Shown here: positions 43,083-50,918 of the stretch, one piece after another
How positions within the stretch are numbered: the first letter of the stretch is position 1
Layout: every line of letters begins with the position of its first letter
Assembly: GCA_951812955.1 (NCBI GenBank)
Contig: OX638340.1
Location: 3,104,001 to 3,168,000, forward strand
Reading direction: 5' to 3'
Source of the DNA: an uncultured Gemmatimonadota bacterium
Lineage (GTDB): Bacteria; JAAXHH01
DNA length: 64,000 nucleotides
Program-made: the position numbers and the translations under genes
Notes under the pieces: generated by a model
Told to the model about the DNA's origin: nothing
The model's database searches: none
What the model saw: the letters and a program-made list of their open reading frames with translations, nothing else

Positions 43083-43392
43083 ATGGGGTCGATCCTTTCG
43101 GCAACCTTTATCCGTTCGTACTGAAGCGGGCCTGCTGGCAAAAAGCGCCGGCGCCTGTTCACTAACGCCGCCCGATATGGCGCTAGTGGTACAACCCGGT
43201 AATATAGGTCATCGCGGGCATTCGGGCAAACGCATTTGACATGACGGTTCCGTGCATTGGGCGATTCCTCGCCTGCTGGCATCGCCCATTTCGGTTAAGT
43301 GATCCATCCTGCTAAACTTTCTGACTGACAACCATTGAAAGTTTCGCGGGGTATCGAAAAACCGGTAATAAAGTGGTGAAGGCGTCCCGCGC

Positions 43393-44401
43393 CTAGGTGC
43401 CGTCGGGGTAGACAAGGCGGGTTATTCGGCTAGACAGATCATGGACGTATGTGAACGTCTTGTCACCGGTCAGGCCGTCGATTTCGACCTGCTTGACGCG
43501 CACGTTGCCGAGATGGTCGTAGGCGTACAGGTAGCTGACCTCGGCGGCCGGGTCAGCGTCGGTATTCTCCTCGACCTTTGCAAGGCGCCCCTGGGCGTAG
43601 TTGGGACCGCCACCCGCGATGGCATCGTTGTCTGCGGCATCGCCGTCGTCGTAGGTCATGCGGCTTCGCCACGAGGTGTTGTCGCGTTCGAAGGGGTAGG
43701 TTGCTCTCCGGATCGAGGGAGGCGAACGTGGCCGTCGCCTCGCCCACGCGCGTTACGCGGCCGAAGTCGTCGTAGATTTTGAAGGTGATTTTCTCGGTGG
43801 CGTTGCCCGTGCCTGCAGCCTTCTGCCGCGTGTCCTGTGAAAAACGCACGCGGCCCAGGTCGTCGTACTTGTAGCGGACAGGTCCGTCGGCATCGGGGTG
43901 ATGCCTGGAGGTCATGCGCCCCAGGGTGTCGTAGGCATAGCGCGAGGTGCCGCCGCCCGGCATGGTTGTCGAGACGAGGCGGTCCAGGGCGTCGTAGACA
44001 AAGGACGTTTTGTTGTTCCTGGTGGCGGCACTCGTACCCGCCGAGTCGGCTATGGCATAGCGCATGCGTCCATAGGCGTCGTAGACGCTGGTGGTCAGGA
44101 CCCCCTTTTCGTCGTCTACAGTCCGAAATGAGCGTCCCTGGCCGGACTCGATACCCCAGTTCCCGTAGCGTGAATCGACCGCGTTATCCTGTGTATGCCC
44201 GGGCGGTATGACGCGGGAGACCCTCAGCAGGGGGTCGTCGTCGTAGGAGACTTGAGTGATGCGTTCTGCCGCGTCTGCGCTGGCCAGGGCGCCGTAGGTA
44301 TGCGAAGGCGACAGGTACGCGGGTCCGAGCAGCGTATCGGGTTTATTGACGCGGTTGTAGTTCGTCTGGGTGACGATGTCGTTTGCGCCGGCTCGACGCA
44401 T
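43393..44401 (-). pseudogene. Rhs/YD-repeat gene fragment (displaced, frameshifted, truncated; no C-terminal tip)
   Basis: Two overlapping-frame ORFs (43553-44401 and 43393-43659) are homologous to residues about 1590-1990 of the large Rhs protein. A premature stop follows YPDGT. Confidence 0.75.
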
Positions 44402-45002
44402 GCAGCAGAAGATGCACCGACTGGGCTATGGATTGGAACCTCGATGCCAGCCTGACCCTGAATGTTATGGACTACAAACCACTGGCCGAATTCGAACGGA
44501 GGTTAACACGCATTAAGACAGTAGCTTAACTACTTGTCCCATTTTTGGGTGCACTACATGTCATTGCCATATACACGCCTGAAGGTCCGCAACGTGATCC
44601 CCTTGTTGGTAGGACCGCCGGGGTCGTTGGGATGATCTACGTATCCACCCTCATGGACTAATACATGTTCGAGGGATGGGGAGAAATTGGGTTTCATATT
44701 GGTTTCTGAATCCCTTTCGGTGGTGTGTTCTGCATTTGTTTAACCTCTGGTTACCTACACAGATGGTGTTTATAGTGCATTTCCCTCATTTATCACAGTT
44801 CCCGCTCATATGCAAACTCGCACACACCAATTCCCTTTGGGAAGGAGTTGATCGACGTTAACCGATCTTCTCAAAATTCGAACATGGAGGTCAGGCCAAC
44901 TTCATCGCATTAACGTCAGAAATACGTTTTTAACCGAAATACCAGATTCGGACTGTCGCATCTGGTATTTCGGAAATAAATGATAGGTATGAAAGTTCGA
45001 AG

Positions 45003-45326
45003 TTATAAGTCTATTAAGCCAAAAAGACGGAAAAAGCTGATTAGGTTGAAGAAAAAAGTACCAATTCCTGTTGTTACGATTAAAATTTTGGTACCTATGT
45101 CCTGTTTATCCCAGTGCTTTATGTCCTTCCAATAGGATAACATAACTAAATTGGCTATCACAGTTACTGTATAGATTGTATCTAACCCATACGCATCTAT
45201 AATGTCACCAAGGTATTCTGACAGAGTCTCCTTAGTATCCCGATAAGGGTTCCCACCGCTCCAAATGCTCCTAAGCAAAACTATCACCCCTACCAATGCC
45301 AGCACTCTACTTACTAATTTCGTCAT
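45003..45326 (-). CDS. Small 3-TM membrane protein, candidate immunity protein for the orphan-2 Rhs tip
   Basis: 107 aa with three hydrophobic helices. GC is clearly low for this genome (AT-rich by eye), and it lies 30 bp downstream of the rhs module stop. Confidence 0.5.
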   Translation of the reverse strand: MTKLVSRVLALVGVIVLLRSIWSGGNPYRDTKETLSEYLGDIIDAYGLDTIYTVTVIANLVMLSYWKDIKHWDKQDIGTKILIVTTGIGTFFFNLISFFRLFGLIDL

Positions 45327-45355
45327 CTAATGTATTTCCTAGGTTGTAGGGTTGC

Positions 45356-47644
45356 TTAGCGCTCATCGTCATCTGGAATAACCGTTTTTGCTGCTTCCTT
45401 CGCCGTATCGTACGATCCACCCTTCCGATCCGATACGAATTCTCCAGTCTTGGCATCACGATATCTCGGTCCGGTGCCATTAAAAGACGTAGGTTTTATT
45501 CTAAGCCTCGAAATGACATTTAACGTTCTCGAGGTTACCATGTTTAATAAGGTAGCCCTAATTTGGTCTGTGGCTCTTTGGGATGAGCCTTCGAAAAACA
45601 GGGCATCTGCTGTTAGTGCAAACGTTTTTGTTATATCTGCACCTGTACCTATAACTGCCGAGGCTCTTACAGAGCCTAACGATCCTGCCGTTATAAAAGG
45701 ATTCCCTGAAACCAAACCCGCACCGGCACCAACTAAACCACCAGCCACACCGTAATCTGCTCCTGCCGAAACAGCATCGCTAGCTACAATGCTAGTCTGT
45801 ATAGCTTCCTGGATCGCGTCTACTGCAGCAAACCTTAATGTACGAATCTCCGATGCTATTTTTGCATAGAGGTAGTGATGCGGCTCATGATGGCTATTTC
45901 CATCCGGATCCACATACTTGAGCGGATTGTTGTTGGCATAGGCATAGGGGCTCAATCCCGGGTACTCGCCCTGCATGGGATCGGGTCTTAAGAACCTGCC
46001 TATATCGTTAGCGTACGACCTTGCGAGCATGTAGTCAAGGCCGGACTCTGAGTCTCTCTCGTGCCCGGTGAACCGGAAATGCGTGGAACCCGTGCCACTC
46101 AATGCCAAAACCTTGCCGTAGGGCCAGTAGTCGTAGATGGCGGTGACTGTGCCTTCCTCATCCACGAGGCTTCTGGTGCTTCCGAGATGATCGGTCAGGT
46201 AGTAGCTTGCGCTACTTCCTGCTATCCGCGCTATTCTTCTGCTGCCCGCGTACACGTACCTTGCAGATAGCATCTGGCCTGAGTATTCGGCGAGTACGCT
46301 GCCGTCCGCTCCCCGCAGGTAGTAGGTGACGGCCGTTCCGACGGTTTTCTTCACGCGCCGTCGGTCCGGATCCATGAGATACCGTGCGCTGCCGTAGCCG
46401 GTGGTAAGCCCGCGGTAGTCGTAGCTCACCGTATCGGCGCCCCTTCGCGTCATCCACCCGTTTTGGTTGTAGGCGTAGATCTGCCCTCCCGTGCCGGTCG
46501 TGCTGTCCAGCCTGTTGGGTGTGGAGGATGCCGAGTAGTTGTAGGTGAGCGTGGTAGTACCTGTGACCAGGCTGGTGATATTGCCGTTCCTGTCGTAGGC
46601 GTAATCCTGCGAGGCACCGCCCGACGCGTCGAAGCCGGTGATCCGGTACAGGTCGTCGTAGGCGTAGTCCGCGGTCTTGGACGCCGCGGTGCCGTGCCGG
46701 TACACCTGCCTGGTGACGTTGCCCACGTGGTCGTAGGTGAGCGTAGACCTGAACGTGCCTGCATAGTTCAGGTCGGTGACCCATTCCCGCGCGTTGTAGG
46801 TGTAGGATCCGGTGATGGCGCCGTCTCCCGCGCCATCTCCCACTCCGTCGCCCACGGTGTGGGTGGCGATATTGCCCGCTGCGGTGTGGGTGTAAGCGAC
46901 CAGGGTCTTGCCTTGCGCATCCCACACGCGGCTGAGCCGCCCGGCGCTGTCGTAGGCGTAGCGCGCCTGGCTGCCGTCGGGGTAGATCAGGCGGGTTACG
47001 CGCCCGGCCAGGTCGTGGAGGTATGTGAGCGTCTTGTCGCCGGCCAGGCCGTCGATTTCGACCTGCTTGACACGCACGTTGCCGAGATGGTCGTAGGCGT
47101 AATGATGGATGACCTCGGTCGCCGCATCCGCGTCGGTATTCTCCTCGACGTTGGTCAGGCGCCCCTGGGCGTAGTTGGGCCCGTCGCCTGCGGCATCGCC
47201 GTCGTCGTAGGTCATGCGGCTGCGCCAGGAGGTGGCATCGGTCTCGAAGGGGTAGGTGCTATCGGGATCGAGGGAGGCGAACGTGGCCGTCGCCTCGCCC
47301 ACGCGCGTTACGCGCCCGAAGGCATCGTACACGGTGTAGGTAACCTTGCCGGTGCCGGCAGCGCGCTGCCGCGCGTCCTGTGAAAAACGCACGCGGCCCA
47401 GGTCGTCGTACTTGTATTGCGTGGCCCCGTCGGCATCGGGGTGATGCCTGGAGGTCATGCGCCCCAGGGTGTCGTAGGCATAGCGCGAGGTGCCGCCGCC
47501 CGGCATGGTGGTCGAGGTGAGTCGGTCCAGGGCGTCGTAGGCGAAGGATGTTTTGTTGTTGCGGGTAGCAGCGTCCGTGCCCGCCGAGTCGGCTATGGCA
47601 TAGCGCATGCGGCCGTAGGCGTCGTAGACGCTGGCGGTTGCCAC
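45356..47644 (-). CDS. Orphan Rhs-repeat module (core 3' part + DPxG junction + distinct Gly-rich hydrophobic C-terminal toxin tip); lacks N-terminus and start
   Basis: YD repeats are collinear with the large Rhs gene, and nucleotide homology extends to about 47840. The junction is ...NNPLKYVDPDGNSHHEPHH. The tip is about 200 aa with a GVAGGLVGAGAGLVSGNPFITAGSLG segment. Confidence 0.85.
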   Translation of the reverse strand: MATASVYDAYGRMRYAIADSAGTDAATRNNKTSFAYDALDRLTSTTMPGGGTSRYAYDTLGRMTSRHHPDADGATQYKYDDLGRVRFSQDARQRAAGTGKVTYTVYDAFGRVTRVGEATATFASLDPDSTYPFETDATSWRSRMTYDDGDAAGDGPNYAQGRLTNVEENTDADAATEVIHHYAYDHLGNVRVKQVEIDGLAGDKTLTYLHDLAGRVTRLIYPDGSQARYAYDSAGRLSRVWDAQGKTLVAYTHTAAGNIATHTVGDGVGDGAGDGAITGSYTYNAREWVTDLNYAGTFRSTLTYDHVGNVTRQVYRHGTAASKTADYAYDDLYRITGFDASGGASQDYAYDRNGNITSLVTGTTTLTYNYSASSTPNRLDSTTGTGGQIYAYNQNGWMTRRGADTVSYDYRGLTTGYGSARYLMDPDRRRVKKTVGTAVTYYLRGADGSVLAEYSGQMLSARYVYAGSRRIARIAGSSASYYLTDHLGSTRSLVDEEGTVTAIYDYWPYGKVLALSGTGSTHFRFTGHERDSESGLDYMLARSYANDIGRFLRPDPMQGEYPGLSPYAYANNNPLKYVDPDGNSHHEPHHYLYAKIASEIRTLRFAAVDAIQEAIQTSIVASDAVSAGADYGVAGGLVGAGAGLVSGNPFITAGSLGSVRASAVIGTGADITKTFALTADALFFEGSSQRATDQIRATLLNMVTSRTLNVISRLRIKPTSFNGTGPRYRDAKTGEFVSDRKGGSYDTAKEAAKTVIPDDDER

Positions 47645-48367
47645 GCCCTTCTCATCGTCTACGGTCCGGAACGACCGTCCCTGGCCGGACTCGGTGCCCC
47701 AGTTCCCGTAGCGTGAATCGACCGCGTTATCCTGTGTATGCCCGGGTGGTATGACGCGGGAGATCCTCAGCAGGGGGTCGTCGTCGTAGGTGGTCTGGAT
47801 GATGCGTTCTGCAGCGTCTGCGCGGGCCAGGGCGCCGTAGGTATGCTAGGCGGCCGGTGCACAGACCTGAGGACGTGCTTGGGAAGGCTCGTCCGGTTGT
47901 ATCTCGATCGGGCTTCTACATCGCCGGCGCCAGACCCAACTCTGGTCTGTATACAGAGCGCCAGGGTCTATAATCCGCCTGGTACAGTATCAGCCACATA
48001 GGCGAAGTCTGTTGCACAGAACAAGACATCGTCGGTCCACCAATGGTCATGACCGGCCGTATCATTACGGACAGACCGACCTATGAGACTGTATAGAGGC
48101 ACACCGAGGTCGTTTATGATGTTCTGATGTTTTCATTTGTGAGCCTTCTGCATTTACTCTCAACTGACCACCGACAAAAGTGAAACCGGGCTTGCCACGA
48201 CACCTGATCTACCAAAACAGTGGGTTTAGCCAGACCGGAAGAATCCATTGAGTACGGTACCTATAAAACAACTCTGTCCTTGCTTCAAAATAACACAGGA
48301 CCTGGACAAGCTGCGTTCCTATCAACAGCAGGCAACAACCTGTCCAGGAACCCGGCATATACCCAAC

Positions 48368-49036
48368 CTATTGCGGAAAATGTCGTTGATCGAACGTGAC
48401 GGACCAACTCCCTTCTGCCCAACTTTTTGGCGATAGCTTGACTGTTGTATCATTGATCCACTGCAATGCACCAAAGTACTTATCAAATACAAACTCGTCA
48501 GGCATATCCGTAACAACAAGGACCCTGTCTAGAATCTCTTTGGAACGGTTTCTGAGCTGGATGTAAATCCGGATCTCTTCGATTTCGTGTTCGACGAAGA
48601 CCTCGGCGACAAGGCGCCTTCCATTTCTCCACCAGACGCGTTTCCGCCAGGTCCACTGATTCACAAAGTTAAGGTCCAAGACCGCTTGCCGGGCTTTCTC
48701 GTATGGCTCAATGTCCCATCCATAAGCCCGCGTCACGATCTCGATGCCCCGGAATAACCAATTCAATGCCTTGTGTTTCTTCTCATATGCGCTGAGTTCA
48801 AAGAAGGCCAATGGATCATCCTTGATTTGTAGCTCGAGACATCCAAGCATGTCTAGTACATTCTGCCTTTTTGGCTGTGGCACGATAAAGACCGATATCT
48901 TCCATGCTTTTCCTGACTCACGAGGTGGTGTGAAATGCCTCTGGAACAAGGCGAGTACTGATCGTGTCTCATTTACAAATCGATGACTAGTCCACCACTC
49001 TAGTTTGGGTGCGTATAGACCAAACTGTCTTATCAT
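48368..49036 (-). CDS. Low-GC cytoplasmic protein, candidate immunity protein for the orphan-1 Rhs tip
   Basis: 222 aa with no signal or TM segment. It lies 26 bp downstream of the rhs tip, and its GC is far below the genome background. Confidence 0.45.
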   Translation of the reverse strand: MIRQFGLYAPKLEWWTSHRFVNETRSVLALFQRHFTPPRESGKAWKISVFIVPQPKRQNVLDMLGCLELQIKDDPLAFFELSAYEKKHKALNWLFRGIEIVTRAYGWDIEPYEKARQAVLDLNFVNQWTWRKRVWWRNGRRLVAEVFVEHEIEEIRIYIQLRNRSKEILDRVLVVTDMPDEFVFDKYFGALQWINDTTVKLSPKSWAEGSWSVTFDQRHFPQ

Positions 49037-49061: not shown

Positions 49062-50918
49062 TCAGGGTTGCTGCTGCCTAATTAACTTTTGTCCTTCACT
49101 ACGCAATCGGTCCGAAGCTGCCTTCTCGGCCTCAAGCGCGGCCTGTCGCCCCGGAACATCGGTTTCAACTATCCGTGCCGAATAGGTTCCAGCCCCCTCT
49201 TGGCGGTTGAACGCATTTACCTGCGTGTTCGCACGGGGTGATGTACCGTCTACGTTAAGCGGCCTACCACTGATTCCCGTTTTGACCACATCACCAGTTT
49301 CTGTGTTGTAGATTTCGTATCGATGTTGCGGCTTGGTACTGAGTTTCGAGTTACCATGAATCGCGCTTCTAGCAGCGTCCGCCGCGTCGGCGCCTTGATC
49401 TGCCGCACGAGTTCCTCGTAGTACTTTAATGAGCGTACCGGCACCACCTGGCACGCCTGGAGCAATGGTTGCCGCCACATCCACGACGAGGCCGACCGCA
49501 TCAAGTGCTGCCCAACCGTAACTGCCCTAGCGGATATTCTGAGCCAGCGACGCCGCACCAATCCCGATGTTGACGACATCCCAGATTGTCTCGGCGGCTC
49601 TTCCATCCGGATCCACATACTTGAGCGGATTGTTGTTCGCATAGGCATATGGACTGATCCCCGGATACTCGCCCTGCATGGGATCGGGCCGCAGGAACCT
49701 GCCGACATCATAAGCGTACGACCTTGCGAGCATGTAGTCAAGGCTGGACTCTGAGTCTCTCTCGTGGCCGGTGAACCGGAAGTGCGTTGAGCCGGTGCCG
49801 CTCAAGGCCAGAACCTTGCCGTAGGGCCAGTAGTCGTAGGCGGCGGTGACGGCGCCTTCCTCATCCACGAGGCTTCTGGTGCTTCCGAGATGATCGGCCA
49901 GGTAGTAACTTGCGCTGTCTCCCGCTATTCGGGCGATCCGCCTGCTGCCGGCGTACACGTACCTGGCAGAGAGCGTCTGACCCGAGTATTCGGCCAGGAC
50001 GCTGCCGTCTGCGCCGCGCAGGTAGTAGGTGACGGCGGTCCCGACGGTCTTCTTCACGCGCCGTCTGTCGGGATCCATGAGATACCGTGCGCTGCCGTAG
50101 CCGGTGGTAAGCCCGCGGTAGTCGTAGCTCACCGTATCGGCGCCCCTTCGCGTCATCCACCCGTTGGGGTTATAGGCGTAGATCTGCCCTCCCGTACCGG
50201 TGGTGCTGTCCAGCCGGTTGAGTGTGGAGGCGGACGTGTAGTTGTAGGTGAGCGTACTGGTACCTGTGACCAGGCTGGTGATATTTCCGTTCCTGTCGTA
50301 GGCGTAGTCCCGGCTCGCGCTGCCCGACACGTCGAAGTCCGTGATCCGGTACAGGTCGTCGTAATCGTAGTCCGCGGTTATGGACGCGGCGCTGCCGTGC
50401 CGGTGCACCTGCCTGGTGACGTTGCCCGCGGGATCGTAGGTGAGCGCGGACTTAAACTTACCCGCATAGTTCAGGTCGGTGACCCATTCCCGCGCGTTGT
50501 AAGTGTAAGCACCAATGACGATGCCGTCTCCCGCGCCATCTCCCACTCCGTCGCCCACGGTGTGGGTGGCGATGTTGCCCGCTGCGGTATGGGTGTATGC
50601 TGCCAGGGTTTTGCCTTGCGCATCCCACACGCGGCTGAGCCGCCCGGCGCTGTCGTAGGCGTAGCGCGCCTGGCTGCCGTCGGGGTAGATCAGGCGGGTT
50701 ACCCGCCCAGCCAGGTCATGGACGTATTCCAGCGTCCTGGCGCCGGTGAGGCCATCGATGGTCACCTGCTTGACGCGCACGTTGCCCAGGTGATCGTAGG
50801 CGTAGAGGTGGGTGACCTCGGCGGTCGCGTCGACGTCGGTGTTCTCCTCGACTTTGGTCAGACGCCCCTGGGCGTAGTTGGGTCCGCTGGAGACGGCATC
50901 GCCGCCGTCGTAGGTCAT
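49062..50918 (-). pseudogene. Orphan Rhs-repeat module with distinct C-terminal tip interrupted by an in-frame TAG (49527-49529)
   Basis: ORFs 49527-50918 and 49062-49484 are in the same frame, separated by a single amber codon 20 aa after the DPDGR junction. The tip contains ...AIHGNSKLSTKPQHRYEIYNTETGDVVKTGISGRP... Confidence 0.7.

Follow-up and report, generated by a model that had tools for sequence, protein, structure and literature searches.

An orphan Rhs cassette followed by a small membrane-protein gene

The window analyzed here is a 64,000-nucleotide stretch of the genome of an uncultured Gemmatimonadota bacterium (lineage JAAXHH01; assembly GCA_951812955.1, contig OX638340.1, positions 3,104,001 to 3,168,000), and it contains an array of rearrangement hotspot (rhs) genes on the minus strand. 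Read along that strand, a full-length rhs gene (hereafter the main rhs gene) is followed by two paralogous open reading frames (ORFs) and then by three 5'-truncated, or orphan, rhs copies. Our subject is the second of these three orphans, a cassette at 45356-47644, together with the small ORF that follows it at 45003-45326, both on the minus strand.

The longest ORF of the cassette (45356-47644) comprises an Rhs core and a C-terminal tip, 762 aa in all, and begins at an internal GTG codon at 47644. The core fragment to which it belongs (45900-47858, minus strand) is homologous to the main rhs gene, with 86.8% DNA identity to positions 53512-55507 over 1999 nt by blastn, and its similarity to that gene breaks off right at the DPDG codons. 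Where the similarity starts, at the 5' end, the frame is interrupted by a stop codon, and the GTG codon at 47644 is the earliest possible start. Scans with Pfam and NCBIfam matched the ORF to RHS_repeat (E = 1.2e-19), YD_repeat_2x (5.9e-16) and, at residues 506-582, Rhs_assc_core (TIGR03696, 1.6e-21), and a DPMQG...VDPDG motif, of the type that marks Rhs C-terminal autoproteolysis and demarcation, can be read from the sequence at residues 555-582 (45899-45982, minus strand). The fragment has neither an N-terminal domain nor a signal peptide of its own. A preliminary description of this DNA, made from the sequence alone, had proposed an orphan Rhs tip at this position, a proposal borne out by the RHS and TIGR03696 matches, the 86.8% identity of the core and the 5' stop.

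Beyond the motif lies a tip of 180 aa plus stop (45356-45898, minus strand), which has phmmer relatives and belongs to no named family. Against a GC content of 0.61 for the whole window, the core stands at 0.64, the tip at 0.47 and the small ORF, which begins 29 bp downstream of the tip, at 0.38. An AT-rich tip together with an AT-rich next ORF is the usual mark of an imported Rhs tip/immunity module, and by its architecture, its truncated core and the differing base composition of its tip, the cassette is an orphan Rhs module with a predicted toxin and immunity gene. The Gly/Ala/Val-rich string that had been noted behind the DPDG motif is indeed present (DAVSAGADYGVAGGLVGAGAGLVSGNPFITAGSLGSVRASAVIGTGADI, residues 623-671, window positions 45632-45778), and because the tip and the small ORF are AT-rich, high GC does not account for the Gly/Ala richness of the tip.

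The tip belongs to a rare family of predicted Rhs C-terminal toxins

The tip has no match in Pfam, NCBIfam, PHROGs or PADLOC, and a word-indexed protein search with the tip was empty; in the same kind of search a profile of the family described below scored two proteins, a result in which low-complexity words probably dominate. An exhaustive phmmer run with the tip as query against 1.84 billion protein cluster representatives recovered 19 relatives with E values of 1.9e-13 (best), 5.2e-12 (second) and down to 9.5e-4, which are 27-39% identical to the tip and cover its residues 17-175. In nearly all relatives that retain upstream sequence, the domain is C-terminal and stands behind an Rhs/YD core and a DPxG motif, indicating that the tip is a member of a rare, previously unnamed family of predicted Rhs C-terminal toxins. 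The carriers are Gemmatimonadota, KSB1 and Calditrichia, which are bacteria of the Fibrobacteres-Chlorobi-Bacteroidetes (FCB) group, as well as unidentified low-GC contigs. A scan of genome contigs with profile A2 of the family returned two loci, one in a KSB1 and one in a Calditrichia metagenome-assembled genome (MAG), and scans of metagenome contigs, with the tip and with alignment A6 of the immunity family introduced below, returned none.

The family alignment (A1) has three parts. The N-terminal part is a variable amphipathic helix. Next comes a small-residue-rich hairpin with the pattern (S/A)D..S..S...A..G, an optional 8-residue insert, and then (A/N)PF.xGxSL..T...L..GTxAD(V/I)T(S)T.AK..DA..FDGS. 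The third part is a conserved C-terminal region, RVVTRTG...GPxFRSAxxGRFV(T/S)N..G..VTA..DAT, whose central motif (consensus GPxFRSAxxGRFV(T/S)N in A1) reads GPRYRDAKTGEFVSDRKGG in the window copy (45416-45472, minus strand); AlphaFold2 predicts a beta-strand and a helix for this motif region with low confidence. The residues A, G, S, T and V make up 49-67% of the sequence across the family (about 55%), and hydropathy averaged over the family reaches its peak, 2.0, in the first arm of the hairpin.

In the window the hairpin is a Gly/Ala/Ser-rich, hydrophobic and predicted helical segment at 45584-45781 (minus strand), delimited by its uncharged stretch and by hhalign, and we propose it as the membrane-insertion element of the toxin. 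Tip residues 48-76 form a 29-residue stretch with zero charged residues, which contains the glycine zipper G52-x3-G56-x3-G60-x3-G64. The preliminary description had likened the segment to glycine-zipper toxin helices; the zipper is present in the window tip and is not a conserved feature of the family. It lies mostly inside the 8-residue insertion of the first arm, which about half of the members carry (the window copy falls in this insert subfamily), and the zipper glycines are not conserved columns in A1, where only a small-residue pattern is conserved and the hairpin signature is (A/N)PF(T)xGxSL...GTxAD(V/I)T. The Gly-zipper families of Pfam matched neither the tip nor other family members. 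The structure model of the tip is mostly helical, and the hydropathy of the segment stays under the classical transmembrane (TM) threshold. The segment is therefore best described as a modestly hydrophobic hairpin of the kind found in toxins that insert from a soluble state, and not as a constitutive TM segment. The AlphaFold2 model of the tip, built from a 20-sequence alignment, has a mean predicted local distance difference test score (pLDDT) of 52 and a predicted template modeling score of 0.29; a Foldseek search of the PDB with this model gave nothing under E = 1, and profiles A1 and A2 gave nothing against PDB sequences at E values up to 10.

A search of plasmids with the tip gave no match. 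Family member P0006 matched a Rhs-like protein of Parabacteroides in the plasmid search, which we rejected as a member, as its Gly-rich C-terminal domain is without the family motifs. The Rhs-like protein at locus L011 (Parabacteroides distasonis NZ_OY725801.1, 112240-113556), annotated as 'FG-GAP-like repeat-containing', has a different Gly-rich hydrophobic segment near its end (GATLGAAAGGV...GGVGGLMGPIGGAGMSFAANVGLGAAQGALVGS), followed by an unrelated C-terminal domain, and may be another membrane-active tip outside the family studied here.

A homologous small membrane protein is encoded behind the toxin in all inspected loci

The ORF downstream of the tip (45003-45326, minus strand) is a putative immunity gene, identified by hydropathy and by homologues at other loci, and encodes a predicted integral membrane protein of 107 aa. 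Its strong hydrophobic segments are residues 1-26 (maximum 2.05) and 77-105 (maximum 1.93), with a weaker one at residues 45-66 (maximum 1.39), and its AlphaFold2 model, which is of low confidence (pLDDT 54.8), has helices at residues 2-22, 35-46, 50-67 and 77-101. The three TM helices initially assigned to this protein are acceptable for the window copy; family-wide, only the last two are conserved, and the extra N-terminal hydrophobic helix is found in the window copy and in L003, a locus that also has the same Rhs core as the window.

At all 10 loci inspected, the toxin gene is immediately followed by a small ORF of one homologous family. These loci were the window itself, L001-L006, L007 (where the contig ends within the small ORF), L008 and L009/L010; L001-L003 are metagenome contigs, L004 and L005 are the KSB1 and Calditrichia MAGs, and L006-L010 are further contigs. 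At the loci other than the window the small ORFs encode 70-104 aa and start a few bases from the toxin stop codon, often overlapping it, in surroundings whose GC ranges from 31% to 54%. Since homologues follow the toxin in nine other loci, the small ORF is more than a chance reading frame. Toxins that are more alike tend to have small partner proteins that are more alike, with pairwise identities correlated at r = 0.63 over 36 pairs that are not independent. Because a homologous small ORF follows the toxin at all inspected loci, the genomic case for a toxin paired with an immunity protein embedded in the membrane is strong, and the earlier pairing of the tip with the small membrane ORF is upheld by both the linkage and the co-variation.

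Neither Pfam nor NCBIfam recognized the small protein, and Imm17 was not matched. Its family has a common layout, in which a short amphipathic helix leads to G(I/L)DPxY, a TM helix leads to (S/T)YW, and a loop is followed by a second TM helix that ends in L.G(L/I)I; residues G47, Y52, Y65, W72, S97 and G103 are invariant. The loop between the TM helices is aromatic and Lys-rich, with (K/R)xFKxW....W(K/R)K following (S/T)YW, and carries a net charge of +1, as compared with -4 for the segment that precedes the first of these two helices. By the positive-inside rule, this distribution fits a cytoplasmic loop and a periplasmic preceding segment, an orientation that the extra N-terminal helix would keep. 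The 107-aa ORF is missing from the protein collection although neighboring genes of the same genome are recorded there, and immunity-family ORFs at L002 (6580-6816) and L003 (1584-1898) are uncalled in the source annotations; gene callers systematically miss this family.

The hairpin of the family resembles the apolipoprotein L insertion domain

Seven of the 20 family members match the Pfam apolipoprotein L family (ApoL, PF05461), at about profile positions 89-145 of 298 and always at the hairpin. One of them, P0018 from the KSB1 MAG, scores 28.1 bits (E = 1.7e-6), above the PF05461 gathering cut-off of 25.9, and the other six score 11.8-22.2 bits. As a reference we aligned 16 mammalian ApoL sequences, including human APOL1 (P0020; alignment A4). 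With hhalign, the whole toxin family aligned to this reference at a probability of 89.6% and a score of 50.3, placing tip residues 9-93 on APOL1 residues 147-225, and the subfamily with the short hairpin aligned at 95% (E = 3.7e-8) on APOL1 residues 179-230. Controls, consisting of reversed profiles, 30 global column shuffles and 30 composition-preserving block shuffles, scored at most 21.7, as compared with 50.3. In addition, when a mammalian ApoL hidden Markov model was run against 798 six-frame ORFs from the GC-rich window and the fetched loci, 13 family sequences outranked every unrelated one, the best of which scored 4.4 bits. At the level of the family, the similarity between the hairpin and ApoL is thus statistically specific and exceeds what composition would give.

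The region of ApoL concerned is experimentally defined: in APOL1 the membrane-insertion domain comprises residues 177-228, which form a two-helix TM hairpin that is needed for pH-dependent insertion of the cation channel (PMC8446801). APOL1 and the toxin family have in common a helix-loop-helix signature, ...G(L/I)xxAPFTxGxSLxL(T/S)xxGxxLGxxAxxT..., and the alignment covers no more than the hairpin and about 30 residues ahead of it. The N-terminal four-helix bundle of APOL1, its pore-lining region (residues 335-356) and its C-terminal leucine zipper have no counterpart in the toxin, and the FRSxxGRFVTN region at the C-terminus of the toxin has none in ApoL. Judged by profile scores, the window protein is not a member of Pfam ApoL, being below threshold and having the hairpin alone in common. 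In the literature that we searched, no paper connects ApoL with polymorphic, Rhs or type VI secretion system (T6SS) toxins.

A proposed membrane-depolarizing toxin and its immunity protein

The reading that we favor, to which we assign a probability of roughly 65%, is that the tip is a helical membrane-inserting toxin that depolarizes its target, is neutralized within the membrane by the 107-aa protein, and is stored with it as an orphan Rhs cassette. Orphan rhs modules are established as recombinable stores. The 1.96-kb core lacks a start codon at its 5' edge, an N-terminal domain and an export signal, and it most likely provides recombination homology by which the tip and the immunity gene would be swapped together onto a full-length rhs gene, and the recipient would be the full-length, Sec-signal-bearing rhs gene that lies 5-15 kb upstream on the same strand. 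Once carried by the full-length Rhs protein, the tip would be encapsulated and cleaved at the DPxG...DPDG motif, as in known Rhs proteins. We envisage that the hairpin would then enter the cytoplasmic membrane of the target, where the toxin would oligomerize to an ion-conducting pore or otherwise dissipate the membrane potential, and that the 107-aa protein, located in the inner membrane, would neutralize the toxin in the bilayer by binding the hairpin or by blocking its insertion or oligomerization.

Several observations weigh against this reading. The 19-residue Kyte-Doolittle maximum of the tip is 1.29, under the classical TM threshold of 1.6, and because the tip model is unreliable (pLDDT 52), a compact soluble fold is still conceivable. 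The tip could then be a soluble enzyme of unrecognized fold that acts in the periplasm or the cytoplasm, its Gly/Ala stretch forming a flexible or buried core and the small protein serving as a membrane-anchored inhibitor. Nearly invariant polar residues (D40, D87, S90, K94, D97 and Q111) would suit such an enzyme, as would the low hydropathy and an uninformative structure model. With about 70-80 aa, of which about 40 lie in TM helices, the immunity protein would nevertheless offer almost no extramembrane mass for binding an enzyme, and the specific similarity of the toxin to the ApoL insertion hairpin and its content of about 55% A, G, S, T and V also argue against a soluble catalyst. The preliminary description had set its membrane-active prediction against a soluble enzyme with an identifiable active site, and searches of Pfam, NCBIfam, PHROGs, PADLOC and PDB sequences, together with Foldseek, turned up no enzymatic family or fold. 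We consider a soluble enzyme improbable.

The conserved C-terminal FRSxxGRFVTN region is left unexplained by the favored reading. In another alternative, the hairpin only anchors or targets the toxin to the inner membrane and the C-terminal part (RVVTRTG...FRSAxxGRFVTN...DAT) does the damage. Such a toxin might bind or sequester lipid II, undecaprenyl phosphate or a transporter, or might extract lipids in a detergent-like manner, as APOL3 reportedly does. Conservation in the C-terminal half equals or exceeds that of the hairpin, with F145, R146, S147, F153, V154, T155 and N156 invariant in A2, this half has no ApoL counterpart, and a membrane-embedded immunity protein is equally compatible with an anchored toxin. 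Family and PDB searches, however, detected no known binding or enzymatic domain there, the region is short (about 60 aa) with few typical catalytic residues, and it is the most divergent part of the window copy. We regard damage by the C-terminal part as rather unlikely.

Two further points concern the state of this particular copy. At positions 90 and 94, where the family has a nearly invariant S and K, the window tip carries K and L, respectively, and neighboring orphan 1 carries an inactivating stop, which indicates that cassettes in this array can decay. The toxin half could accordingly be a decaying, non-functional remnant in this strain, with only the immunity gene, if anything, under selection, against kin that deploy the toxin. 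The missing start codon at the 5' edge of homology and the missing export domain are consistent with this possibility, as are the truncation and frameshift of orphan 3 and the outcome of a promoter scan, which showed no sigma-70-like site on the minus strand, although the host may use another type of promoter. On the other side, the frames of 762 and 107 codons are both intact, the tip aligns along the full family domain, and the two substitutions recur in relative P0003, which suggests a subclade and not decay; moreover, decay would concern expression in this strain and is silent on what the module does. A decayed toxin is unlikely in our estimate, and depolarization by an inserted hairpin remains the reading that we carry forward.

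The support that ApoL lends to an inserting hairpin is also limited in several ways. The window tip alone gives no ApoL signal, either with Pfam at E values up to 5 or with hhalign, and its long-insert subfamily reaches 20% (score 31.9, E = 1e-3) over the same region. Because the tip itself gives no signal, its link to ApoL is transitive, through the short subfamily, to which it is joined by phmmer (P0002, 5.2e-12) and by a common immunity family. The ApoL match spans only about 50-80 residues of small, hydrophobic sequence, and some members also match the hydrophobic heads of MakE and MakA, as well as Ssp4, faintly in NCBIfam (at most 21 bits, as compared with cut-offs of 300-360), so that the likeness could be convergence among the hairpins of helical pore formers. 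That the toxin family is truly related to the insertion domain of animal ApoL, and that the ApoL innate-immunity channels descend from a bacterial polymorphic-toxin module or have a common ancestor with one, is a tentative proposal to which we give somewhat less than even odds.

Relationship to known membrane-active toxins

The closest functional precedent is Tse5-CT of Pseudomonas aeruginosa (RhsP1), an Rhs C-terminal pore former that inserts into and depolarizes membranes and is neutralized by Tsi5, a protein with two TM helices (PMC9637101, PMC10684867). As in Tse5, the predicted toxin is a C-terminal fragment behind a DPxG motif that is helical, hydrophobic and without an enzymatic signature. 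The putative immunity protein likewise resembles Tsi5, in that both are small, have two predicted TM helices, belong to the inner membrane (here as predicted) and are encoded beside their toxins. The two systems differ in that there is no sequence relationship between them, Tse5 in the PDB (8cp6_B) having matched only via the Rhs core (query residues 476-582); in that Tse5 is delivered by a T6SS via VgrG and PAAR, whereas the main Rhs protein here bears a Sec-type signal; and in their hosts, which are FCB-group lineages as opposed to Pseudomonadota. By sequence comparison, the module is not a member of the Tse5-CT/Tsi5 family.

Other membrane-active systems resemble the module in part. Tox-WTIP is the sole predicted pore-forming C-terminal domain in the 2012 catalogue of polymorphic toxins; it has two membrane-spanning helices and can be linked to RHS, and the same catalogue lists Imm17 and Imm-CdiI as immunity proteins with two TM helices (PMC3482391). 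Tox-WTIP is defined by RxxR and Wx[ST]IP, and Imm17 by WxW plus an R between its two TM helices (PMC3482391). We rejected an identity with either, as the defining motifs are absent from A1 and A5 and Pfam, which is expected to hold these models, gave no match at E values up to 5. The membrane-targeting effector Ssp4 is countered by integral-membrane immunity proteins (PMC12669606). Ssp4/Sip4, Ssp6, Tse4 and the ClyA-type MakA/MakE resemble the present pair in that they are helical toxins with hydrophobic insertion hairpins, the effectors being paired with integral-membrane immunity proteins, and differ from it in size, architecture and delivery route.

New toxins are often met on Rhs tips. Few of these tips are non-enzymatic and insert into membranes, with one pore-forming domain in the 2012 catalogue (PMC3482391) and Tse5 as the characterized Rhs example. 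The present analysis newly defines one toxin family and one immunity family that are strictly linked, neither of which is matched in Pfam, NCBIfam, PHROG or PADLOC; as far as these searches indicate, both are undescribed, and both fall within an established type of system. APOL1 is a trypanolytic factor and the bearer of variants that confer risk of kidney disease. If the homology with ApoL is true, these toxins would be the first bacterial relatives of APOL1, a minimal toxin of about 150 aa with a two-TM immunity protein would make a tractable model of how the ApoL hairpin enters membranes and is blocked, and a natural protein that inhibits an insertion hairpin of the ApoL type would be available from the bacterial system.

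Neighboring loci in the window

The main rhs gene (52995-60287, minus strand) is full length and encodes 2430 aa. Its listed start is probably too far upstream (within 60000-60287), as an internal Met opens a Sec-type signal, MQRHLCCFAVRMLIGILMLSTAAPIVHG. Because of this signal, and because no PAAR or VgrG match was found in the scanned ORFs next to it, the sequence suggests that the main Rhs protein is exported Sec-dependently and not by a T6SS. The tip of the main Rhs protein, which follows DPDGR (52995-53511), has no family match. In the region 51292-53511 (minus strand), the main tip is followed by a pair of paralogous ORFs (270 and 292 aa); they are 26% identical to each other (E = 7e-29), have no family match and may be duplicated immunity genes.

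Orphan 1 (49062-50918, minus strand) consists of an rhs core ORF (49527-50918) and a nuclease-type tip of the Tox-URI2 family (49062-49484; Pfam E = 1.1e-14). Core and tip are in the same frame and are parted by a single in-frame stop (...LAQNIR*GSYGWAALD...), so that this orphan looks to have been inactivated by a nonsense mutation. A 222-aa ORF downstream of it (48368-49036) is its presumed immunity gene and has no family match. On the other side of the cassette, a 47-aa ORF (44557-44697, minus strand) matches positions 1-37 of glycoside hydrolase family 108 (PF05838, E = 7.9e-13) and appears to be a truncated fragment of a lysozyme-like gene between the small TM ORF and orphan 3. Orphan 3 (43380-44392, minus strand) is a tipless 1.0-kb rhs core that is 84.7% identical to the main gene, is broken into two reading frames and adjoins a ClpX-like gene.

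Upstream of the main rhs gene, at 60566-63984 (minus strand), two proteins with Ig-like (Big_2) repeats are encoded, one of the Big_2 matches being sub-threshold. They have a common C-terminal region, PWSVS..NVYRLTGNVGIGV...LVVDG.I.AEE...PADYVF...YDLM.L......GHLPG, which is followed by a coiled coil.

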